A program made the position numbers and the translations under genes. The notes under the pieces are model-generated. The model was not told the origin of the DNA and did no database searches. It saw only the letters and a list, made by a program, of their open reading frames with translations. This document shows positions 5,106-36,983 of a stretch of 64,000 nt of DNA, one piece after another. Source of the DNA: Zoogloeaceae bacterium (GTDB lineage Bacteria > Pseudomonadota > Gammaproteobacteria > Burkholderiales > Rhodocyclaceae). The first letter of the stretch is position 1, and every line of letters begins with the position of its first letter. The stretch spans positions 547,256 through 611,255 of the forward strand of contig JACKLZ010000001.1 of assembly GCA_024235675.1 (NCBI GenBank), given 5' to 3'.

Positions 5106-6425
<1,320 letters not shown>

Positions 6426-6476
6426 TTCGCCAATGAGCACCCGACTTCGGCCGCGTGAACGGTAAAACAGGAAAAA

Positions 6477-6502
6477 TCGGGCCGGTGATACAACCGGCCC
6501 GA
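6477..6502. terminator. GC-rich hairpin between eno and ftsB
   Basis: TCGGGCCGGT-gataca-ACCGGCCCGA is a 10-bp perfect stem. The A-tract lies on the left, so there is no U-tail on the + strand; it may be an mRNA-stabilising hairpin or an antisense terminator. Confidence 0.45.
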
Positions 6503-6512
6503 CACCTATCCC

Positions 6513-6788
6513 ATGCGCTGGCCCGTTCTGATCTTGATGCTGCTCATGTTGGCACTGCAGTACCCCCTATGGTTCGGCAAAGGGGGGTGGTTTCGCGTTT
6601 GGGAAGCGGAACGCCAACTGACGGAGCAGCAGGCGCTCAATCACAAACTTGAACAACGCAATGCCGGTCTGGATGCGGAGATCCGCGACCTGAAGACCGG
6701 CACTGAAGCCATTGAAGAGCGCGCCCGTTTCGAGCTCGGGCTGACCAAACCCGACGAGATTTTTGTTCAGGTGCCGCAAAAGCGCTGA
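6513..6788 (+). CDS. ftsB: Cell division protein FtsB
   Basis: N-terminal TM segment, LQYPLWFGKGG, coiled coil and IEERARFELGL; located after eno. Confidence 0.96.
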   Translation: MRWPVLILMLLMLALQYPLWFGKGGWFRVWEAERQLTEQQALNHKLEQRNAGLDAEIRDLKTGTEAIEERARFELGLTKPDEIFVQVPQKR

Positions 6789-9485: not shown

Positions 9486-10367
9486 ATGTCGTCTCATCGA
9501 GCCGGCGCGCTGTATGTGGCGTTGTCGGCCAGCTGCTTTGGCGCGATGGCAATTTTTGCCAAGTACGCCTATCTCGATGGCGTGGATGTGGCAACGCTGT
9601 TGTTGCTGCGCTTTTCGATTGCTGCGCTGATCATGATCGCGCTCGTCGTCGTGCAACGACGCAGATGGCCGCGGGGGCTCAACCTGGGGCTGCTCGCGGC
9701 AATGGGTGGCATTGGTTATGTCGGCCAGTCCTTCTGCTTTTTCTCAGCGCTGGAATTCGCCTCTGCCGCGCTGGTGGCTTTGCTGCTCTACCTGCACCCT
9801 TTTATCGTGACGGTGTTGAGTGCGATCTTTTTCGGACAGGCACTGACGCAGGTTCGGGTTGTGTCTGTGCTCGCTGCCCTGGTGGGAACGGGCCTCGTCA
9901 TTGGCGCGGATGTGTCAGGGCAGCCCATGGGCATTGCCTTGGGCGTAGCGGCGGCGGTGATCTATTCGGCCTATCTGCTCACCGCCAATCGCGTCATGCG
10001 GCAGGAAGATCCGGTGGCAGCCAGTACGGTGGTCATGAGTTCAGCTGCGCTGGTGCTCGGCGCGATGGCGGCGTTCAATGGCGCGCAACTGCCGCAGAGT
10101 GTGTCTGGCTGGGCCGCCATTGTGGCGATCGCCGGCATCTCGACCGTCATCGCCATGGTGTGTCTGTTTATCGGCATCCAGCGCCTTGGCGCGGCGGACA
10201 CCGCGACCTTGTCCACACTGGAACCGGTGGTGACCACCGTGCTGGCCGCGGTCTTTCTGGGGGAGCAGATCAGCAGCATGCAGCTTGTCGGCGGTTTGGT
10301 GATTCTTGCCGCAGTCATCGTACTGGCACGCTATAGCCAGCCGGCGCCCCGGCCAAGCAATCAATAA
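9486..10367 (+). CDS. DMT/EamA-family transporter
   Basis: About 10 hydrophobic helices in two EamA repeats (LLLRFSIA; TLEPVVTTVLA..FLGE). Confidence 0.9.
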   Translation: MSSHRAGALYVALSASCFGAMAIFAKYAYLDGVDVATLLLLRFSIAALIMIALVVVQRRRWPRGLNLGLLAAMGGIGYVGQSFCFFSALEFASAALVALLLYLHPFIVTVLSAIFFGQALTQVRVVSVLAALVGTGLVIGADVSGQPMGIALGVAAAVIYSAYLLTANRVMRQEDPVAASTVVMSSAALVLGAMAAFNGAQLPQSVSGWAAIVAIAGISTVIAMVCLFIGIQRLGAADTATLSTLEPVVTTVLAAVFLGEQISSMQLVGGLVILAAVIVLARYSQPAPRPSNQ

Positions 10368-29244: not shown

Positions 29245-31257
29245 TCAGTCGAGCGCCAAGCGAAGCTTGAGCCAAAGTGTCCGCCCCGGCTCGTTGATCC
29301 GATCTGTCGTGTCGTAGCCCGAAATGCTCGCCCCGCTGCGCGAGATGTGTTCCGCATAGGTTTTGTCGAACAGGTTGTCGATGCCTGCCGAGATCAGGGT
29401 GCGCTTGTTGGGGGTGTAGCTGGCATTGATCGAGAACACGCTAAAGCCACCCGTTTCGCCGACGTCCTGCCCAACGATATTACCGGTGCCAACGCTTACG
29501 CGGTCCTGACCCGACACCAGCCGCCACAGGGCACCTGCTGACCAGCTGTCGGTTTTGTAGTTGATGCCCAGACGCCCTTCCAGCGGCGGGATCTGCCCGA
29601 GCGCGGTGTCGTCGGTGTCGTTTTCGCCACGAACCCACGCAAGCGTGGCCGTACCGGTCCAGTGGCTGCTGAAGTCATAGCGCAGATCGGCTTCGGCGCC
29701 CCAGGTGGTGGCGTCGACATTGCGGGCGTTACTGGCCCAGGTGCTGACCGCTGGCAGCGTCTCGATCAGGATGTAGTCAGAGTGTTTGGCAAAAAACGCC
29801 GAGACCGACGCCTGCGCCGGACCGGCCTGATGCAGCGCACCGATATCGAGCTGCGTGGTCTTCTCGGGCTTGATGTCGAAAGTGCTGGCGGTGCCGGTCA
29901 TCATCATTGTCGTGGCCTGGGGGTTCTTGTTGCGCTCCCAGTAGTCAGCGGCGCGTTCGCTGTGGCCAAGGCCGGCGTAGAGCGTCTTGCCACCGCCCAG
30001 ATCGTGCTCATAGCGCAGGAAGCCGGCTTTCAGCGTATCGGTTTCCTCGGTACCGGAGGTGGTCTTGCCCGTGCGCTCGTCTTCGGCACGACTGCGGTCA
30101 ATGCGCAAACCACCGATCATGCGGTGGCCGTCGGCAAACGCGTGCTGCAACTCGCCAAACACGCCATAGCTATAGAAACGCATATCGGCCGTGCGGGAAA
30201 GCGACTCGTAGTCTGGAATGCCCGCCATGCTGCTGGCCTTGCGCAGGGTGTGTTCGTTGCGCTGGAGTTCCGCGCCCAGGTCGAGCACGGTGGCGTCGCT
30301 GAGGTTGAGCGTCGCGGCGACGCGGCTTCCCTGGGTCTCGCGGTCTGGATTATTGACGGACTTCATGCCGGTGTTGGCGCGCAGCGAGTAGTTGTCCATC
30401 ACGTGGTCAACATAGTTGCGATAGATCTGCGCCTCGATTTTGGCCAGGAGCGGCGAGATGTTGGATTTTTCGAACTTCAGCCCGATGTTCTCGCGGTCGA
30501 ACTTGACGCCGTCCATGGAGCGATCGCCGTAGCGCGCTTCGCCGTCGCTCTTGGCGAGCGAGAGTTCAAGGCGCGTGTCGCGGTCCGGCGTCCAACCCAG
30601 CGCGAGGTTGGTACTCCAACGCGTGTAGGCCGAGTGCACCTCGTTGCCGGCGCCGTCCTTGTAGTTGTTGGCGTCGGAACGTGTTGCGGCAACATCAGCG
30701 TAAAAACCGGGCGTGCCGGCCTGTCCGGTGAGCACCTGATCATTGCGGTCGGCGCTGCCCATCAGCAGGCTCATGTCGCCTTTGACCCCTGCCGTCTCGA
30801 ACGACGGCGCCTGGCGCTCAAACAGCACCACGCCCGCGCTGTTACCGGGGCCGTATTTGACACTCTGCGGCCCTTTGAGCACGGTGACTTTGTCGTAGGC
30901 TTCAGGAAACACGTACGCCGTCGGCGGGTCCATGCGCATTCCGCAGCCGCCGAGGACCATCTCGCCATCGAGCAGAATGCCCAGCCGCGATGCGGCCATG
31001 CCGCGGAATACCGGGTCACCATCGGTGCCGCCCTTGCGGATCACCGAGAAGCCGGGAATATTCTTCAGCAGATCGGCGCCGTCATGCGCCGGAATCGGCT
31101 GACGCGCGGCCTTGGGGTCAGTCGTGACAACCAGTGCTTCGGCCATGGCGGGCGCGGTCACCACCACGTGATCCATGATTTTGTCGGTGCTCTGCGCGAG
31201 TGCGCCGTGGGCGAGCAACAGGCCGATGGCGGCGGGCAGCATTTTCATTCGTGTCAT
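29245..31257 (-). CDS. oprC: TonB-dependent copper receptor (OprC/NosA type)
   Basis: Signal peptide; plug motif GGCGMRMDPPT (CxxxM) and DHVMDN (HxM), matching the OprC copper site; Met-rich loop; C-terminal NEPGRTLW. Confidence 0.92.
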   Translation of the reverse strand: MTRMKMLPAAIGLLLAHGALAQSTDKIMDHVVVTAPAMAEALVVTTDPKAARQPIPAHDGADLLKNIPGFSVIRKGGTDGDPVFRGMAASRLGILLDGEMVLGGCGMRMDPPTAYVFPEAYDKVTVLKGPQSVKYGPGNSAGVVLFERQAPSFETAGVKGDMSLLMGSADRNDQVLTGQAGTPGFYADVAATRSDANNYKDGAGNEVHSAYTRWSTNLALGWTPDRDTRLELSLAKSDGEARYGDRSMDGVKFDRENIGLKFEKSNISPLLAKIEAQIYRNYVDHVMDNYSLRANTGMKSVNNPDRETQGSRVAATLNLSDATVLDLGAELQRNEHTLRKASSMAGIPDYESLSRTADMRFYSYGVFGELQHAFADGHRMIGGLRIDRSRAEDERTGKTTSGTEETDTLKAGFLRYEHDLGGGKTLYAGLGHSERAADYWERNKNPQATTMMMTGTASTFDIKPEKTTQLDIGALHQAGPAQASVSAFFAKHSDYILIETLPAVSTWASNARNVDATTWGAEADLRYDFSSHWTGTATLAWVRGENDTDDTALGQIPPLEGRLGINYKTDSWSAGALWRLVSGQDRVSVGTGNIVGQDVGETGGFSVFSINASYTPNKRTLISAGIDNLFDKTYAEHISRSGASISGYDTTDRINEPGRTLWLKLRLALD

Positions 31258-31359
31258 TCGGGACTCCCGGAAGCTGTGTGCTGAATTTGGACCGGGCGAA
31301 GCATAAGAAAATGGTGATATGCCACGTTTGACCTACCGCAAGATTCGCCTGCCGAATAC

Positions 31360-31376
31360 TGCGACAGATCGTCGCA
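31360..31376. promoter_or_regulatory. Perfect palindrome TGCGAC-N5-GTCGCA upstream of oprC (RegA/PrrA-type box)
   Basis: TGCGAC-AGATC-GTCGCA about 100 bp upstream of the oprC ATG. The regulator assignment rests on resemblance only. Confidence 0.55.
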
Positions 31377-31413
31377 AGCCTTTATCTACAAGGCGTGTGG
31401 CGAAGCACGAAGT

Positions 31414-31442
31414 AAAAACGGCATGCTCGCGAGCATGCCGTT
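31414..31442 (-). terminator. Terminator of the BON-domain gene
   Basis: Palindrome AACGGCATGCTCG/CGAGCATGCCGTT with a T-run on the minus strand, downstream of the BON stop. Confidence 0.78.
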
Positions 31443-31488
31443 CAAGGGCGATACCGTGCACAGAGTGCACCGTCGGATATGCCGCGTG

Positions 31489-31830
31489 TTAGCTGCCGGT
31501 CGGCGGCGCCAGTTCATTGATGACGCGCTTGACGCCTTCAACCCCTGCGGCGCGCTGAGCCGCCGCATCGCGTTGCGCGGGTGAGCTCACCTGCCCGCTC
31601 AGCAAAATCACGCCGTCGCTCACATCTACCCGAATCTTGGCGTCCTGCAGCGTCGTCGTTTCGGCCAAGGCGGCCTCGACCTTGCCTTTGATTGCCGCGT
31701 CGGCTGCCGACACGCTAAGGACGGGTTTTGCCGTGCTATCCGGCGTACCGGCCGCTTGGCCGGGCTGGACGAGTCCAAAGGACAAGGCGGCGATGGCGAT
31801 GAGACTGGCGGTGGTAAATCCGTGTTTCAT
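31489..31830 (-). CDS. Single-BON-domain periplasmic protein (OsmY-like)
   Basis: AGGAG RBS, signal peptide, and D..I..KV.A.L / IRVDVSDGVILLSG / A..VEGVKRVINEL motifs. Confidence 0.9.
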   Translation of the reverse strand: MKHGFTTASLIAIAALSFGLVQPGQAAGTPDSTAKPVLSVSAADAAIKGKVEAALAETTTLQDAKIRVDVSDGVILLSGQVSSPAQRDAAAQRAAGVEGVKRVINELAPPTGS

Positions 31831-31887
31831 GATGTCACTCCTGTTTGAGACAAGTGATGACGCCGAAAGGGTCGTCACAGCGACTAC

Positions 31888-31903
31888 AGCAGCGATCATG
31901 CCA
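31888..31903 (-). promoter_or_regulatory. Sigma-54 (-24/-12) promoter of the BON gene
   Basis: Minus strand TGGCATGATCGCTGCT has exact GG-N10-GC spacing, 58 bp upstream of the ATG. Confidence 0.72.
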
Positions 31904-31987
31904 ATTAGATGATTCCTTCTGAAATCATGGACTTACCAGAGCTCGCCAAACTGAACCCGACTCGCCGGCTCGCAATCCCTGGGGATT

Positions 31988-32005
31988 TGTCGCTGCATGA
32001 CAACA
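31988..32005. promoter_or_regulatory. GlrR-type enhancer site (one mismatch)
   Basis: TGTC-GCTGCATGAC-AACA against the consensus TGTC-N10-GACA. Confidence 0.55.
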
Positions 32006-32047
32006 GCAAAGTGCCGGATAGGTCGCAATCTCCGATGCAGACAGGGC

Positions 32048-33475
32048 TTACGCCCGTCCCGGTGCTGCGACATCGTTTGTCTCGTCGGCCAGGCGGAACA
32101 TCGCTGGCGTCAGCGTATGGCGCTGCAAGAGCCGGTAAAACTCGGTGCGATTGCGATCGGCCAGACGGGCCGCATCGGTGACGTTGCCGCCCGTCAGCTT
32201 CAGCACCTGCGTCAGGTATTCACGCTCGAAGCGCTGGCGCGCCTCGGCATAGGTCAGTACCTCGACGGAAGGCGTGCGCAAGGCGCGTTGAACCAGGGTG
32301 GCGGCAATCAGTGGCGTCGTGGTGAGTGCACAGACCTGCTCGACCACGTTGTAAAGCTGGCGCACATTGCCCGGCCAGGCGGCGGCCACCAGCATTTCCA
32401 GCGCCTCAGGGGCAAACCCGTGAATGGTCTTGCCGTACTTCTCCGACAGACTACGGATGAAGTGGCCGGCGAGCAGCGGGATGTCCTCGCGCCGCGCATC
32501 GAGTGAGGGCAGCGTCAGGCGAACGACGTTGAGCCGGTAATACAGGTCTTCGCGAAAGCTGCCCTCGTGCATGGCCGCATCCAGATCGCGATGCGTGGCC
32601 GAAATAATGCGGACATCGACTGGCCGCGCTCGTGTCGCTCCGACCGGACGAACCGCCCGCTCCTGCAACACGCGCAGCAGCTTGACCTGCAGCGGCAGCG
32701 GCATGTCGCCGATTTCATCCAGAAACAGCGTGCCGCCATCGGCGCTGAGGAACAGACCGTCATGCGCGGTGCTGGCCCCCGTGAACGCGCCTTTCACATG
32801 CCCGAACAGCTCCGACTCCAGCAAGGCCTCGGGAATCGCGCCGCAGTTGATCGCCACGAAGGGATGTTCGGCACGCACACTGGCGCGATGGATCGCTCGC
32901 GCCAGCAATTCCTTGCCGCTGCCGCTGGCACCGCGGATGAGCACGCTGGCGTCGCCGGCAGCGACCATGCGCGCCTCCTCGAGCACCTCGTTCATGCACG
33001 CGCTGCGACTGACGATCTCGGCGCGCCAGGCCTGGCTGTTTTCTCCGGCCTTGAGCGCGCGCGGTGCGGAGACATCGAGCGCCCGGCGCACCTTGTCGAG
33101 CAAGACGCGGCTGTCAAAAGGTTTGGTCAGGTAACCGAACACGCCCCGCGCGGTGGCATCGACCGCATCGGGGATGCTGCCGTGGGCGGTGAGCAGGATA
33201 ACGGGCAGACCGGGGTGGGTGCGACGGATTTCATCAAACAAGGCCAGGCCGTCGCGGCCCGGCAAGCGCACATCGCTGAGCACCAGGTCCGGCGAACGCA
33301 CGGCGAGGTGGGCCAACGCTGCCTCGGCGGAGTCCACGGCATCAACCTGGTAGCCGCTGGCGCGCAAACGCATGGACAAGAGGCGCAGCAGATCAGGGTC
33401 GTCGTCGACCAGAAGCAGGCGGGGTGACTCGGGCGCATCGCTGTTTGAGGTCTCTGCGCGCATGGCGAGATTCAT
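32048..33475 (-). CDS. glrR: Sigma-54-dependent response regulator GlrR/QseF
   Basis: REC domain (LLLVDDD, LSDVRLP, LTAHGSI..AV, LTKPF), AAA+ domain with GASGSGKE, ESELFGHVKGAFTGA and FREDLYYRLNV, and C-terminal GNVTDAARLADRNRTEFYRLL typical of GlrR. Confidence 0.93.
   Translation of the reverse strand: MNLAMRAETSNSDAPESPRLLLVDDDPDLLRLLSMRLRASGYQVDAVDSAEAALAHLAVRSPDLVLSDVRLPGRDGLALFDEIRRTHPGLPVILLTAHGSIPDAVDATARGVFGYLTKPFDSRVLLDKVRRALDVSAPRALKAGENSQAWRAEIVSRSACMNEVLEEARMVAAGDASVLIRGASGSGKELLARAIHRASVRAEHPFVAINCGAIPEALLESELFGHVKGAFTGASTAHDGLFLSADGGTLFLDEIGDMPLPLQVKLLRVLQERAVRPVGATRARPVDVRIISATHRDLDAAMHEGSFREDLYYRLNVVRLTLPSLDARREDIPLLAGHFIRSLSEKYGKTIHGFAPEALEMLVAAAWPGNVRQLYNVVEQVCALTTTPLIAATLVQRALRTPSVEVLTYAEARQRFEREYLTQVLKLTGGNVTDAARLADRNRTEFYRLLQRHTLTPAMFRLADETNDVAAPGRA
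32055..32072. promoter_or_regulatory. GlrR-type enhancer site (one mismatch) inside the last codons of glrR
   Basis: CGTC-CCGGTGCTGC-GACA, 67 bp from the site at 31988. Confidence 0.5.
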
Positions 33476-34029
33476 CGGGAAGTCTCCGTTGGACGGCGTG
33501 CCGGCGCGGGCAAGCTGCGCTCGATCGCGGTCAGGGCGTCCAGTTTCTGTTGCAGGTTAGCCACCGCTTCGCGACCGGATTGCTGTTCAGCCAGCAAGGC
33601 TTCGTTCTGCGCCATCAATCGGGCACGGGTGGCCAGCTGAACATGCACGATTCGCGCCAGCGGATGGAGGCTGGCCGCATCGGGGCTGCGATTGACCAGC
33701 AGTTTGTCGAGCAGTGACAAGCCCCGCGCCAGATCGGCGTCGGCTCGCGGCTGCGCATGCAACAGCGCCAGTCGCATCTGGCTCATCGGGTCGCTGCCAC
33801 CCTGCCCTTCGATGGCTTTCAGTTCCTTGGCAAAACCGGCGGCGTCCAGCTCGGCGACATGGCGGCCATAGGCAAGGATGGCGCGCGGCGTAACGTCATC
33901 GTGGCGGACTGTCGTCTTGAGCGGCTCATCGGAAGGCAGGGTGCCGGCAATGGGAAATTGCGCGCAACCGGCCAGCAGGCCCAGGGCGAATGCCGGTGCG
34001 CTCAGGCGGCGGAGTCGGAAGTTCATCAA
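33472..34029 (-). CDS. QseG/YfhG-like helical outer-membrane lipoprotein
   Basis: Lipobox LLAGC, C-terminal coiled coil LQQKLDALTAIERSL, and position between kinase and regulator with an ATGA overlap. Confidence 0.8.
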   Translation of the reverse strand: MMNFRLRRLSAPAFALGLLAGCAQFPIAGTLPSDEPLKTTVRHDDVTPRAILAYGRHVAELDAAGFAKELKAIEGQGGSDPMSQMRLALLHAQPRADADLARGLSLLDKLLVNRSPDAASLHPLARIVHVQLATRARLMAQNEALLAEQQSGREAVANLQQKLDALTAIERSLPAPARRPTETSR

Positions 34030-34037
34030 TAAGAGTC

Positions 34038-35444
34038 TCAGCTATCGAGTGGGAGTTCGATTCGAAAATGCGCGCCGCGTTCGCCGGAGAGCAATATGAC
34101 GCGGCCACCGTGAGCCTGGACATACTCGCGCACGATAGACAGACCGACGCCACTTCCCCGGCGTGGCGTCGCGCCTTGGCGACGCCCCTGAAAGAAGGGG
34201 TCGAAAATACGCGGGACGTCATCTTCGGCAATACCCGGGCCGGTGTCGATGCAGTCGATATGAAGGTGATCCGCGCTGCGAGCGGCGCGCAGACTCACCA
34301 CGGACCCGGACGTACTGAAGGAAATCGCGTTGGCCAAGAGATTGCCAACCGCCACACCGAGTTTGACCGTGTCGCCTTCGACCGAGATTGGCTCGGCAAC
34401 AAGCTCAATCCTGACGTCGCGGGACTGGGCTTGCAGCTGCTGCCCCTCCGCCACTTGAGTCAGCAGGGATTTGACCTCAACCAAACTGCGCTGCAGGCGC
34501 CGTGCGTCGAACACCGCGGCGTTGAAGTCGAGCAAATCTTCGATCCGGCCTTGAAGCAAATGCGCGTTGTCACGAAGAATGTCGACGACTTCGCGCTGTC
34601 CGCCGGCGAGCGGCCCGGTGACTTCGTCGTCGAGCAGCGCGATGCCCTCGCGCAGTGCCGCCAGCGGTGTTTTGAGCTCATGAGAGACATGGCGAAGCAT
34701 ACGCGCCCGGTCCGCCTCCAGTTCTCCCAGGCGCTGGCGCAGCCAGTCCAGACGTTGGCCGACCTGGCGCAAGTCGGCGGGGCCTTCGATATCGACCGGG
34801 ATGTCGAGCAGGTTGTCGCCCAGGCGAGCAATGCCCTCCTCAATCTGCTTGACCGGTCGCGCCAGCTGCCAGCCAAAAAAGGCGGCCAAGGCGAATGCGA
34901 CCAGCAGCGCGAGCAGAACCTGCCACGCCAGGCGGAGCCGGTTTGCCTCAAGCGTGTCCAGCAAGCGCGCATTGCGTACGGCAATCCATTGGCGCGCTTC
35001 GACGGTCAAGCGCTCGTTGATCAGATGCAGACGGTCCAGCGCGTCGCGCAAGGCGGGCTCATCGGGCAGATCCGCGATCGCCGCTTCGGCCTGGTCGGCC
35101 GCAGCACGCCATGTATCCGCTACACCACCCAGGGTGGACGGCTCGGCGCGAGAAAAGCTCGCCAGTGCCGTTTCGGCATCGGTACGAGCTTCACCAAAGC
35201 GTTTGCGAAGTGCCGGGTCATTCAGCACCACGAACTGCCGTGCGCTGCGTTCCATGTCGACGGTACGTTGCGCCAACTGCTGGGCAGCCGAGGTCAGTCC
35301 CAGTGCAGTATCCGCACCGGCACGACTGTGTTGCGCAAAGGATTCAAGCACCCGCAAACCCTGCAAGGCGGCCGCACTCAGCACCATCGCGATGAGCACA
35401 AAGCCGGCGAGCAGCATTTGCCGGAATGACATTCGGGAAAACAT
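34038..35444 (-). CDS. glrK: Sensor histidine kinase GlrK/QseE
   Basis: Two TM segments, HAMP domain, H-box VSHELKTPL, N-box NLLANA and G-boxes DTGPG and GSGVGL; start MFSRMSFRQ. Confidence 0.9.
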   Translation of the reverse strand: MFSRMSFRQMLLAGFVLIAMVLSAAALQGLRVLESFAQHSRAGADTALGLTSAAQQLAQRTVDMERSARQFVVLNDPALRKRFGEARTDAETALASFSRAEPSTLGGVADTWRAAADQAEAAIADLPDEPALRDALDRLHLINERLTVEARQWIAVRNARLLDTLEANRLRLAWQVLLALLVAFALAAFFGWQLARPVKQIEEGIARLGDNLLDIPVDIEGPADLRQVGQRLDWLRQRLGELEADRARMLRHVSHELKTPLAALREGIALLDDEVTGPLAGGQREVVDILRDNAHLLQGRIEDLLDFNAAVFDARRLQRSLVEVKSLLTQVAEGQQLQAQSRDVRIELVAEPISVEGDTVKLGVAVGNLLANAISFSTSGSVVSLRAARSADHLHIDCIDTGPGIAEDDVPRIFDPFFQGRRQGATPRRGSGVGLSIVREYVQAHGGRVILLSGERGAHFRIELPLDS

Positions 35445-35470
35445 GGAACCGCCCACGACATGGGTGACAG

Positions 35471-35488
35471 TGTCGACTGTAGGCGACA
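35471..35488. promoter_or_regulatory. GlrR-type site, perfect consensus
   Basis: TGTC-GACTGTAGGC-GACA, 27 bp upstream of the glrK ATG. Confidence 0.7.
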
Positions 35489-35564
35489 GGTCGATCCGAT
35501 GCGGTAAGCAAATGCAAATGGGGGCGTATGACAATGCATTTGCCCATTGCCACCACACCATGCG

Positions 35565-35582
35565 CGTCGCCAAATGGCGACA
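35565..35582. promoter_or_regulatory. GlrR-type site (one mismatch, extended palindrome)
   Basis: CGTC-GCCAAATGGC-GACA (GTCGCCA-aa-TGGCGAC). Confidence 0.65.
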
Positions 35583-35631
35583 TTAAAAGTAGTTTTATAA
35601 ACAGCAACTTAAGAAATGTTACCAAAAGCTG

Positions 35632-35649
35632 TGTCGGTTATTGGCGACA
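35632..35649. promoter_or_regulatory. GlrR-type site, perfect consensus
   Basis: TGTC-GGTTATTGGC-GACA, 67 bp from the site at 35565. Confidence 0.72.
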
Positions 35650-35725
35650 GGTGCTACACAAGCCAGGCCATCGGGTGCATTGTCTACCGGCGCTAAGCCA
35701 CGATGATTCAATGACTTCCAGTGCG

Positions 35726-35741
35726 TGGCATGCCACTTGCA
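35726..35741 (+). promoter_or_regulatory. Sigma-54 (-24/-12) promoter of the bactofilin gene
   Basis: TGGCATGCCACTTGCA is a near-consensus GG-N10-GC, 55 bp upstream of the ATG. Confidence 0.82.
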
Positions 35742-35795
35742 AGAGTCGGGCCAAGCGGGTGCCGTGCCCGCAGCCGCGATTGTCAAGGAGATGAG

Positions 35796-36419
35796 ATGTT
35801 CAATAAACCCGGACTGTTCCCCAAGCGTGGAGCCCCTGAGCCCACGCCCGCCCCCTTCAACTCATCCACGCCGACGAATTCGACGTCGGCGTCTAACCGA
35901 CCGTCCCCCAGACCCGGAACATTTGGAGCCCATATGCGTAGCCCGACCGACACCGCGACCGACACCGCTACCCAGGCAACAGCTGAAGCCGCTGAACCGC
36001 GTGCAGACGCAACAGAAAACGGCGGTAGCCGCCTGATTGTCGGACCCGACGTCAAACTCAAGGGGGCCGAGATTCTCGATTGCGACACCCTGGTGGTTGA
36101 AGGCCGGGTCGAAGCGACCATGGACAGCCGTGTGATCCGTATTGCGGAGCAAGGTGCGTTCTCCGGAAAAGTCGGTATCGATGTCGCCGAAATCCACGGC
36201 AAATTCGATGGTGAACTCACTGCGCGCAAGCAGTTGATCATCCATGCCACTGGCCGGGTCAGTGGAAAGATCCGCTACGGCAAGATCTTGATTGAGGAAG
36301 GTGGCGAAGTATCCGGCGACGTGCAATCGCTCAACTCGGTTCAGGCCGGTCGTGGCGACTACGACAAGCAGTCCGGCAAGGACGACAAGGTCAAGTCGCT
36401 GGTGGCCTCTTCGAACTGA
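35796..36419 (+). CDS. Bactofilin (polymer-forming cytoskeletal protein)
   Basis: AAGGAG RBS; disordered N-terminus followed by the beta-helix LIVGPDVKLKG / LVVEGRVE / AEIHGKFDGEL / GRVSGKIRYGKILIEEGGEVSG. Confidence 0.92.
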   Translation: MFNKPGLFPKRGAPEPTPAPFNSSTPTNSTSASNRPSPRPGTFGAHMRSPTDTATDTATQATAEAAEPRADATENGGSRLIVGPDVKLKGAEILDCDTLVVEGRVEATMDSRVIRIAEQGAFSGKVGIDVAEIHGKFDGELTARKQLIIHATGRVSGKIRYGKILIEEGGEVSGDVQSLNSVQAGRGDYDKQSGKDDKVKSLVASSN

Positions 36420-36440
36420 CGGCACCGAACGCGCTGTTCG

Positions 36441-36481
36441 TGTCGCAAAAACGGGTGCCGGTGGCACCCGTTTTTGCGACA
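36441..36481. terminator. 19-bp perfect inverted repeat after bactofilin
   Basis: TGTCGCAAAAACGGGTGCC-ggt-GGCACCCGTTTTTGCGACA. Confidence 0.75.
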
Positions 36482-36524
36482 ATCCGTCCTTATGGAAGAT
36501 ATTCCGTTTCCGGAGAGCCCGTTC

Positions 36525-36983
36525 ATGCGCCCTATTCTCGCTGCCGCCGTCGTGATTGCAGCCAGCTCTTTTTTTGTTGTCTCCCCTGCCCTTGCCGATC
36601 AGCACGCCCCGTCGGTGACATCGGCCAAAATCGCCACCCCGTGGTCAAGCGATGCGCCACTTCGCGCTGCGGTCGATGAGATGGCGCAAATGCTGCGTGC
36701 CGTCGGCCACGACTTGCAGCAAAACCAGCGCACCGAAGCGCAATACGATGCCCTGGCAGAGTGGATGCTCAAGCGGCTGGCTGCGTTTCCGACCACACAT
36801 GCCGACCGCAACGCCGCCATCGCGCTCTCCGAGATCAAGAAAGATCTGAGCGATGGCGCCGACATCATGACCCACGCCACTCACCTGCCCGCCCGCCGGC
36901 TGGGCTACATGATGGCGGTGCAAGCGCTTAACCGTTACGGAAAAAGCTTCGAGCATCCTGACTGGACGCCGATTCCTCTGTAA
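36525..36983 (+). CDS. Exported helical-bundle protein (DnrO-like)
   Basis: GGAG RBS, signal peptide and W.SDAPLR..V..M pattern; the family call is by resemblance only. Confidence 0.55.
   Translation: MRPILAAAVVIAASSFFVVSPALADQHAPSVTSAKIATPWSSDAPLRAAVDEMAQMLRAVGHDLQQNQRTEAQYDALAEWMLKRLAAFPTTHADRNAAIALSEIKKDLSDGADIMTHATHLPARRLGYMMAVQALNRYGKSFEHPDWTPIPL

Follow-up and report, generated by a model that had tools for sequence, protein, structure and literature searches.

A QseE(GlrK)–QseG–QseF(GlrR)-type envelope two-component system encoded in the 64-kb window (the whole stretch of DNA analyzed, part of a 3.78-Mb genome) quite probably has its two flanking genes as direct outputs. It would most likely switch on a bactofilin, a cytoskeletal protein that binds membranes, and a secreted BON protein instead of a small RNA and, judged from sequence, is a known sigma-54 two-component system with a new output. 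The bactofilin and BON genes are taken as outputs because a conserved sigma-54 promoter with GlrR-type sites lies on either side of the system. The genome is ~91% complete, so further targets may be missed. We found no published description of a bactofilin or BON protein as targets of a GlrK-QseG-GlrR relative. An earlier note on this DNA had proposed a GlrK-QseG-GlrR/sigma-54 module acting on two neighbors, and protein homology, the cis-layout, footprints and the presence of rpoN, which the genome carries in one copy, support that proposal.

The operon and its three regulatory proteins

The glrK/qseE, qseG-like and glrR/qseF genes form an operon flanked by the only two TGGCAY-N5-YTGCW sites of the window, each aimed at one gene that has its own terminator. 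The genes are as follows.

31489–31830, minus strand: 113-aa secreted protein with one BON domain (PF04972, E 2e-18); it has a signal peptide, and its gene an AGGAG Shine-Dalgarno sequence
32048–33475, minus strand: GlrR/QseF-type sigma-54 enhancer-binding response regulator (receiver, AAA+ and Fis-type HTH domains)
33472–34029, minus strand: QseG-like lipoprotein (LLAGC lipobox), a helical globule with a long C-terminal helix
34038–35444, minus strand: GlrK/QseE-type HAMP histidine kinase, with the ATG at 35444 taken as its start
35796–36419, plus strand: bactofilin of 207 aa (PF04519, E 1e-17; domain at residues 81–176)

The kinase matches Salmonella QseE over its full length (PDB 9m08_C, E 7e-64) and is 33% identical to E. 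coli GlrK. Its MERSxRQ motif is conserved, and the QseG-contact arginines, R66 and R69, align with R70 and R73 of QseE. The best family of the regulator is GlrR (NF011695), with a score of 619 bits versus an equivalog cut-off of 763 and 426 for the next family; across the genome it is the single best match to this model (next locus, 350). It shares 57% identity with E. coli GlrR, and the HTH segments are near-identical (RNRTEFYRLLQRH here versus RNRTEFYKLLSRH in E. coli GlrR).

The middle gene is more divergent. The lipoprotein, for which an AlphaFold2 model has a pLDDT of 82, matched no Pfam or NCBIfam model, and neither the single sequence nor a family profile matched a PDB chain. An hhalign profile comparison with E. 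coli QseG gave 60% probability (E 8e-5) and a common KL(D/E)xLTxIERxL motif, which points to a remote QseG homolog. The suggestion that this gene is qseG therefore holds at the level of remote homology by profile comparison, while no QseG family model matches the protein.

Promoters, palindromes and terminators

The cis-elements of the locus are listed below; palindromes and the conserved box are given without strand.

31416–31443, minus strand: BON intrinsic terminator, a folded 12-bp stem followed by UUUUUACUU
31888–31903, minus strand: BON sigma-54 promoter TGGCATGATCGCTGCT (-24 GG, -12 GC), predicted start near 31877; TGGCA and GC invariant in 13 genomes
31923–31935, plus strand: IHF-like box AATCATGGACTTA between enhancer and BON promoter; AAG...TGA columns 90–100% conserved across the genus
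31988–32005: proximal BON-side GlrR-type site TGTTGTCATGCAGCGACA (BON-sense); GT.G...GAC invariant
32055–32072: distal BON-side GlrR-type site TGTCGCAGCACCGGGACG (BON-sense), 67 bp from the proximal site; GTCG...GAC invariant
35471–35488: GlrR-type site 1 TGTCGACTGTAGGCGACA, 27 nt ahead of the glrK start codon, at 255 bp from the -24 element of the bactofilin promoter
35504–35517: conserved box GTAAGCAAATGCAA beside site 1; 12 of 14 positions invariant in 14 genomes
35565–35582: GlrR-type site 2 CGTCGCCAAATGGCGACA, CGTC-N10-GACA; GTCG...GCGAC invariant
35599–35611, plus strand: second IHF-like box AAACAGCAACTTA, flanked by sites 2 and 3; CA....T columns conserved, (A/T)TTCAANNNNCTTG in relatives
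35632–35649: GlrR-type site 3 TGTCGGTTATTGGCGACA; its start is 67 bp from that of site 2 and 94 bp ahead of the -24 T
35706–35718, plus strand: IHF-like box ATTCAATGACTTC beside the bactofilin promoter; kept in nearer relatives
35726–35741, plus strand: bactofilin sigma-54 promoter TGGCATGCCACTTGCA, predicted transcription start near 35752; TG.CA and TTGC invariant in 14 genomes
36441–36481, plus strand: bactofilin hairpin terminator, a folded 19-bp stem with an A5/U5 base

When the window was re-read, every motif coordinate of the earlier note proved correct: two GG-N10-GC promoters flanking the operon, the IHF-like boxes at 31923 and 35706, the perfect site at 35471, a 67-bp start-to-start spacing shared by the bactofilin and BON sides, and proximal palindromes 78 and 86 bp from the -24 GG. 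A terminator for each target had also been claimed, and both hairpins fold strongly (a 12-bp stem with U5 for BON; -41.5 kcal/mol, z = -5.5, for a 69-nt piece of the bactofilin terminator that includes a second small hairpin).

Both promoter sites are intergenic and oriented toward the adjoining gene. Shuffled windows held a mean of 0.40 TGGCAY-N5-YTGCW matches, with at least two in 3 of 100 shuffles. Genome-wide, 98 sites fit a looser sigma-54 pattern, and among these only the bactofilin and BON promoters have at least two GlrR-like palindromes 40–320 bp upstream. Perfect TGTC-N10-GACA occurs in the window only at 35471 and 35632. The site at 31988 reads TGTC-N10-AACA on the plus strand (TGTT on the BON-sense strand), and more distant relatives have a full TGTC-N10-GACA or CGTC-N10-GACA there; the site at 32055 reads CGTC-N10-GACA on the plus strand and overlaps the last glrR codons. 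Our site frequency table is partly circular because the sites were picked by likeness to the consensus.

Some 12 of the proteins encoded in the genome have a sigma-54 interaction domain, so the GlrR assignment rests on motif identity and linkage. Both promoters might thus be real and yet be activated by another enhancer-binding protein, the palindromes being sites for that protein or for some unrelated regulator, a reading with which the sub-cut-off score of GlrR would agree. We consider it very improbable, as the palindromes fit the experimentally defined GlrR site, TGTC-N10-GACA (PMC3045617), and match ABS2 of E. coli glmY (TGTCGCTTTCTGGCGACA) almost base for base; the near-identical HTH segment likewise argues against it, as does the persistence of the module beside glrR in ~100 loci even though the target gene changes.

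With GlrR as the activator, we infer binding, activation and a signal at this locus along the following lines. The outer-membrane lipoprotein would modulate the inner-membrane kinase, which would phosphorylate the GlrR-type enhancer-binding protein. This protein would then bind TGTCG(CC)-N4-(GG)CGACA palindromes, three before bactofilin and two before BON, at 67-bp spacing and, with the DNA bent at the IHF-like boxes, would activate RNA polymerase–sigma-54 at both -24/-12 promoters. Two monocistronic mRNAs would result, one for a bactofilin with a putative membrane-targeting N-terminus and the other for the secreted BON protein.

Conservation in relatives and across Burkholderiales

Footprint alignments of same-genus genomes (probably Denitromonas), 13 for the BON side and 14 for the bactofilin side, bore out the expectation that the palindromes and promoters would be conserved in relatives. 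Indeed, nearly all invariant intergenic bases in these 13–14 genomes fall within promoter, palindrome or IHF-like elements. By our count, 57 of the 60 invariant columns in the 351-bp glrK-bactofilin spacer (14 genomes) lie within named elements, that is, the three sites, two IHF-like boxes, the promoter, the Shine-Dalgarno sequence and one extra box. Invariant columns are similarly concentrated in motifs in the BON-side spacer (13 genomes). The GTAAGCAAATGCAA box was also found in another genus (locus L045).

The synteny anticipated for the locus, BON-glrR-lipoprotein-kinase with a divergent bactofilin, is present in most same-genus genomes, with the BON ortholog in the same position in most loci and undetected in one genome. 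Bactofilin orthologs were found in 15 of 15 same-genus genomes. In one genome (G018) the bactofilin ortholog is unlinked, the kinase being on another contig, and is preceded by an AGGCAC-N5-TTGC promoter and two sites with a 66-bp spacing. Three genomes (G016, G017 and G019) are without kinase and without bactofilin. The kinase-bactofilin pairing extends to three further genera.

Across 100 Burkholderiales loci, the same promoter module precedes differing envelope genes. In Rhodocyclaceae-type genomes these are bactofilin, at times accompanied by a FeeM acyltransferase, and BON; in Oxalobacteraceae-type genomes the gene is BON, and in Comamonadaceae-type genomes opgG or opgH. Promoters with at least two sites spaced 65–69 bp were counted for 30 of the 45 kinase-linked bactofilin loci in this set and for 14 BON, 11 opgG and 18 opgH genes and one PRC-barrel protein gene.

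Short GC-rich palindromes do arise randomly in a GC-rich genome; 58 match at least 12 of 14 positions genome-wide, and two of the five sites at the locus, those at 35565 (CGTC) and 31988 (TGTT on the BON-sense strand), are imperfect. That the motifs arose by chance or are decayed remnants, functionless today, is nevertheless the least credible reading: two promoter matches were found against 0.4 expected, both flanking the operon in the correct orientation, the invariant columns concentrate in motifs while the spacers diverge, and 70 target promoters share the 65–69-bp spacing.

We detected no terminator separating glrR from the BON gene, and operon read-through could therefore account for part of the BON expression. 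The palindromes might mainly autoregulate the glrK-qseG-glrR operon, with site 1 working on the 5′ region of glrK and the distal site of the BON side lying inside glrR, leaving the flanking genes largely independent and BON transcribed by read-through. The location of site 1 close to the glrK start codon and the conserved box beside it would suit this arrangement. Sites 2 and 3, however, like the two sites on the BON side, hold a fixed distance and phase to outward-pointing sigma-54 promoters, the unlinked bactofilin of G018 retains sites and promoter, and the module precedes opgG or opgH in Comamonadaceae-type genomes; we therefore judge it unlikely. Site 1 may in addition autoregulate the sensor operon, alongside control of the flanking genes.

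For the preferred reading, direct control of bactofilin and BON, the physiological role may lie in homeostasis of the envelope or periplasm, perhaps osmotic, with a link to remodeling of the membrane or cell wall. The proposed coupling of envelope sensing to cell shape or envelope remodeling gains indirect support from the same module before opgG/opgH, BON genes and the bactofilin-FeeM pair in other lineages.

Comparison with known systems

[quoted passage not shown] The system described here shares with the enterobacterial one a three-gene operon in the same order, full-length kinase homology with the QseG-contact arginines kept, the level of regulator identity given above, the C-terminal helix motif of QseG and a target directly upstream of glrK. 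At enterobacterial glmY (PMC3045617), a sigma-54 promoter is combined with two IHF-like boxes and three TGTC-N10-GACA sites; in the E. coli sequence, 63 bp separate ABS2 from ABS3, and TGGCAC lies 107 bp from ABS3. The bactofilin promoter is alike in its -24/-12 element, three such sites >90 bp upstream and two IHF-like boxes. By contrast, the predicted outputs here are protein-coding (bactofilin and BON) and not small RNAs; in line with the earlier claim of no GlmY output, none of 21 genomes has a member of the GlmZ/GlmY RNA family. Furthermore, the upstream target is divergent from glrK, whereas it is co-oriented in Enterobacteriaceae, the gene downstream of glrR is BON in place of the glnB of E. 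coli, and, unlike in the enterobacterial system, no sigma-70 promoter overlapping the sigma-54 promoter was seen at the locus. The QseG-like protein, at 185 aa, is also shorter than E. coli QseG (237 aa) and is missed by family models.

Clusters of qseEGF (kinase-lipoprotein-regulator) have been listed for Betaproteobacteria and Acidithiobacillia, and the QseG-QseE interface shown to be conserved (mBio 2025, PMC12691602); the cluster here fits that description. In the passages covered, that work concerns the proteins, and no promoters, binding sites or target genes in these lineages were found there.

The bactofilin consists of an MFNKPGLFPK N-terminus, a Pro/Ser/Thr-rich linker and the bactofilin domain. 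Its N-terminus resembles a membrane-targeting sequence, being close to that of Caulobacter BacA (MFSKQAKS) and to the MFSKKKK consensus of bactofilins (PMC12448750). Unlike membrane-associated bactofilins such as BacA, it has no client protein encoded beside it in this genome, and its expression is predicted to be inducible via sigma-54 and a two-component system. Two papers name bactofilin together with sigma-54, in passing only, as far as title, abstract and the number of term occurrences show. The BON protein, like E. coli OsmY and DolP, is secreted and has a BON domain, and its best family matches are weak (OsmY, 44 versus a cut-off of 174 bits; DolP, 31 versus 184). It differs from these proteins, which have two BON domains each, in carrying a single one in 113 aa and in having a promoter predicted to depend on sigma-54 and GlrR.

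The glrK–qseG-like–glrR operon

The operon, the BON gene downstream of it and the divergent bactofilin gene are arranged as follows.

Features of the locus
31489-31830, minus strand: secreted single-BON-domain protein (PF04972, 67 bits)
31888-31903, minus strand: predicted sigma-54 promoter of the BON gene
31988 and 32055: proximal and distal BON-side GlrR-type palindromes
32048-33475, minus strand: sigma-54 enhancer-binding response regulator; receiver, AAA+ and HTH_8 (Fis-type HTH) domains
33472-34029, minus strand: lipoprotein, 185 aa, LLAGC lipobox; no family match
34038-35444, minus strand: HAMP histidine kinase, from domain matches
35471, 35565 and 35632: GlrR-type palindromes of the bactofilin side (sites 1, 2 and 3)
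35726-35741, plus strand: predicted sigma-54 promoter of the bactofilin gene
35796-36419, plus strand: bactofilin (PF04519, 64 bits against a 27.9-bit cut-off, residues 81-176)

A domain search found all of the GlrR/QseF domains in the regulator (receiver, sigma-54 AAA+ and Fis-type HTH), and its top family is the GlrR model NF011695, with 619 bits compared to 426 for the next family, a score that does not reach the equivalog cut-off of 763. The protein is the single best GlrR-like locus genome-wide and is 57% identical to E. coli GlrR (442 aa). The HTH segments of the two are near-identical (RNRTEFYRLLQRH in the window's regulator and RNRTEFYKLLSRH in E. coli GlrR). By sequence, we assign the regulator as a GlrR/QseF orthologue. 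The window's genome encodes one copy of rpoN.

The kinase, which shares 33% identity with E. coli GlrK, aligns end to end (residues 6-467, E 7e-64) with 9m08_C, the chain for QseE in the cryo-EM structure of Salmonella QseG-QseE. The kinase sequence MERSARQ lies opposite QseE MERSYRQ, so that R66 and R69 correspond to Salmonella R70 and R73, both reported as QseG-contact residues (PMC12691602). We thus assign the kinase as a QseE/GlrK homologue, predicted to include the periplasmic sensor with its QseG-contact arginines.

The lipoprotein encoded between them has no match in Pfam or NCBIfam, sequence searches of the PDB with either the single protein or a 16-member profile gave no QseG match, and comparison of its AlphaFold2 model with PDB folds returned weak TPR and Fis1-like helical matches only (E > 0.8). 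Homology was visible only when the 16-member profile was compared directly with E. coli QseG (hhalign, 60% probability, E 8e-5). This alignment spans the C-terminal helix, the most conserved part of the family (LQQKLDALTAIERSL compared to KLENLTDIERQL in E. coli), and the two proteins have in common a KL(D/E)xLTxIERxL motif. In the AlphaFold2 model (pLDDT 82), a helical globule precedes a single long C-terminal helix, in agreement with what has been described for QseG (PMC12691602). We treat the lipoprotein as a putative remote QseG homologue.

Predicted promoters, GlrR-type sites and target genes

The motifs listed in the earlier note for the two flanks of the operon were all recovered in place. 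The pattern TGGCAY-N5-YTGCW matches twice in the 64 kb, compared to 0.40 matches expected from shuffles; the two matches flank the operon, one at either end, and face the neighbouring gene. The window contains just two perfect TGTC-N10-GACA palindromes, both in the glrK-bactofilin spacer. A genome scan with a single palindrome gave 58 matches, mostly uninformative, and was replaced by a combined promoter-plus-sites scan, in which palindromes were counted 40-320 bp upstream of sigma-54-like sites. A loose sigma-54 pattern occurs at 98 sites in the 3.78-Mb genome (about 91% complete), and only the two flanking the operon have at least two GlrR-like palindromes upstream. As read from sequence, both the bactofilin and BON genes have a sigma-54 promoter with upstream TGTC-N10-GACA-type sites and IHF-like boxes. 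Site 1 is located 27 nt upstream of glrK and may also autoregulate the operon. The distal BON-side site (32055-72) lies inside the last glrR codons (...DVAAPGRA*), so that the end of the regulator protein and the predicted site for its binding would constrain each other.

Synteny and site footprints were compared across relatives, a check proposed in the earlier note, and both bore out its expectation, as the gene order is kept and invariant columns concentrate in the motifs. A bactofilin orthologue is present in 15/15 other genomes of the genus, including one labelled Denitromonas iodatirespirans. Wherever the contig extends far enough, these genomes have the order BON-glrR-lipoprotein-kinase and a divergent bactofilin, except that BON was not detected in one locus (L035); the kinase-bactofilin pairing occurs in three further genera as well. 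When the glrK-bactofilin spacer was aligned from 14 genomes, mean column identity was 60% and, by our count, 57 of the 60 invariant columns fell in sites 1-3, the IHF-like box between sites 2 and 3, the -24/-12 promoter, the Shine-Dalgarno sequence and a box at 35504-35517. On the BON side, the invariant columns are the distal GTCG...GAC, the proximal GT.G...GAC, part of the IHF-like box, and TGGCA and GC of the promoter. The 31988 site is imperfect in the window's genome; more distant relatives have a full TGTC-N10-GACA or CGTC-N10-GACA there.

The 35504-35517 box (GTAAGCAAATGCAA) lies between sites 1 and 2, is invariant at 12 of its 14 positions in the 14 genomes and also occurs in another genus (L045). 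Of the sigma-70, sigma-54, sigma-32 and sigma-E promoters for glrK that could be constructed, it fits none. The box may serve as a promoter of glrK or be bound by another regulator.

The bactofilin begins MFNKPGLFPK, its orthologues starting MF(N/S/T/A)K, and the membrane-targeting consensus of bactofilins is MFSKKKK (PMC12448750). Because its N-terminus is close to this consensus, the protein is predicted to polymerise on the inner membrane. The BON protein has a hydrophobic signal-like stretch at its N-terminus; it was rejected as an OsmY or DolP equivalog, scoring far under both cut-offs.

Folding confirmed a strong hairpin terminator at the end of each target, as the earlier note had described, which argues that the bactofilin and BON genes are each monocistronic. 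A consensus terminator scan missed both, that of bactofilin perhaps since an A-run pairs with its U-run. Between glrR and the BON gene no terminator was detected, and thus the latter may also receive read-through transcription from glrR. The 5'UTR hairpins of the two target mRNAs are no stabler than shuffles (z = -0.2 and -1.1). Beyond the bactofilin terminator, 36525-36983 encodes a 152-aa protein that has a signal peptide but matches nothing in Pfam. It was detected in 11 of the 14 loci examined from the genus, and its gene has no recognised promoter of its own. Just past the BON terminator, 29245-31257 encodes a TonB-dependent copper receptor (TIGR01778, 760 bits), the position of which is kept in most of the genus.

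The predicted enhancer module across Burkholderiales

A kinase-profile scan of representative genomes yielded 80 loci from Burkholderiales as broadly defined by GTDB, and kinase-lipoprotein-regulator is the gene order in nearly all of them. These loci and 20 relatives were searched, with targets not preselected, for sigma-54-like promoters with at least two upstream palindromes.

Genes found behind the module (lineage names from record titles)
Bactofilin: 30 of 45 kinase-linked loci by our count; Rhodocyclaceae-type (Dechloromonas, Azonexus, Thauera, Aromatoleum, Propionivibrio, Methyloversatilis, others)
BON protein downstream of glrR: 14 loci; Rhodocyclaceae-type and one Pseudoduganella MAG (Oxalobacteraceae-type)
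opgG: 11 loci; Comamonadaceae-type (Polaromonas, Hydrogenophaga, Ramlibacter, Aquabacterium)
opgH-like glycosyltransferase: 18 loci; Comamonadaceae-type (Variovorax, Xenophilus)
PRC-barrel protein: 1 locus; Pseudothauera

The two-site spacing is 65-69 bp in all target classes. In the Comamonadaceae-type loci (L066, L086, L089, L092, L094-L099 and L103-L130), the module lies directly downstream of glrR, before opgG (MdoG) or the opgH-like glycosyltransferase (~9,600-9,800 in each locus); the promoter is mostly TGGCACAGGGTTTGCC, and upstream of it lie two palindromes with a spacing of 67 bp, of which the proximal is 112 bp away. The Pseudothauera nasutitermitis locus (L054, 4095-4718), in which no bactofilin was detected, has a predicted sigma-54 promoter and two GlrR-like sites before a gene for a secreted PRC-barrel protein upstream of the kinase. 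In one genome (G018), bactofilin orthologue and kinase are on different contigs, and the bactofilin still has two palindromes, spaced by 66 bp, and a promoter of the form AGGCAC-N5-TTGC. Three genomes of the same family have neither the kinase nor the bactofilin.

In Dechloromonas-, Azonexus- and Propionivibrio-type loci (L056, L057, L058, L060, L063, L065, L069, L070 and L100), the gene 23-36 nt past bactofilin encodes an N-acyl amino acid synthase of the FeeM family (PF21926, E 2e-52), and the two apparently form one sigma-54 operon. The window's genus has a terminator after bactofilin where Dechloromonas-type relatives have FeeM. A FeeM homologue elsewhere in the window's own genome (G000, C1:1168524) was rejected as a regulon member, with no sigma-54 promoter or GlrR sites upstream.

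The comparison shows that the genes predicted as outputs of the module belong to the envelope and periplasm. A single type of enhancer module, made up of a promoter, two or three sites ~67 bp apart and IHF boxes, recurs in front of different genes, and this travel between target genes is the strongest argument for GlrR as the activator.

Proposed mechanism and comparison with the glmY system

The signal of QseE/GlrK and the role of the system outside Enterobacteriaceae are poorly understood. In the mechanism that we consider most likely, the QseG-like lipoprotein and the kinase would give rise to phosphorylated GlrR, which would bind the palindromes; IHF-assisted looping and then open-complex formation at the two sigma-54 promoters of bactofilin and BON would follow. 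The opgG/opgH and BON targets in sister lineages point to periplasmic/envelope homeostasis as a common theme. More tentatively, with a likelihood that we place a little short of even, QseEGF would ancestrally be a sigma-54 switch for envelope/periplasm homeostasis, its output gene being exchangeable between lineages; bactofilin would then be a stress-induced, membrane-bound effector of envelope stress rather than a constitutive shape determinant. The same tentative reading proposes periplasmic or osmotic status as the QseE/QseG signal, because OsmY-like BON proteins and OPG synthesis genes share this theme. The exchangeable outputs, seen here or already known, would be bactofilin (with or without FeeM), BON and opgG/opgH in Burkholderiales lineages and GlmY in enterics.

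The qseEGF clusters of Betaproteobacteria were recorded in 2025, with target genes not mentioned in the portion of that text available (PMC12691602). A literature search, with most subscription journals outside its coverage, found no GlrR/QseF- or sigma-54-controlled bactofilin, BON protein or opgG/opgH operon, and no QseF/GlrR targets of these kinds for the betaproteobacterial genera. As no published bactofilin under dedicated stress-type signalling was found, this may be the first predicted case of one. The locus and its relatives provide a compact, testable regulon of two monocistronic targets with defined sites, and the question of when and why bacteria deploy bactofilin becomes testable in culturable denitrifying Rhodocyclaceae (Denitromonas, Dechloromonas, Thauera and Aromatoleum).

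In Enterobacteriaceae, the glmY and glmZ sigma-54 promoters have three TGTC-N10-GACA sites, bound by GlrR, over 100 bp upstream; the region also contains two IHF sites, and ABS1, the distal GlrR site, is dispensable (PMC3045617). We read the E. coli K-12 glmY region (L135) directly. There, ABS2 is TGTCGCTTTCTGGCGACA, and the sites of the bactofilin promoter share its TGTCGC...GGCGACA pattern. The two proximal sites are 63 bp apart in glmY and 67 bp apart at the bactofilin promoter, and the proximal site starts 107 bp and 94 bp, respectively, from the T of TGGCA. Each promoter has three sites and two IHF-like boxes. Because sites, spacing, site count and IHF-like boxes correspond, the predicted bactofilin promoter reproduces the glmY architecture. 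Within the E. coli region (6368-6571), the distance is 33 bp from ABS1 to ABS2 and 63 bp from ABS2 to ABS3, and only the spacing of the proximal pair resembles the 65-69 bp of Burkholderiales.

The earlier note's proposal that GlmY is not the output here held up, as no RNA of the GlmZ/GlmY family was found in the window's genome or 20 relatives and 31200-36700 contains no Rfam match. At the level of comparative genomics, we regard as solid the prediction that bactofilin and BON are a new output of a known system. The system would work like the enterobacterial QseE/QseG/QseF, but with a different output, bactofilin and BON taking the place of GlmY/GlmZ control.
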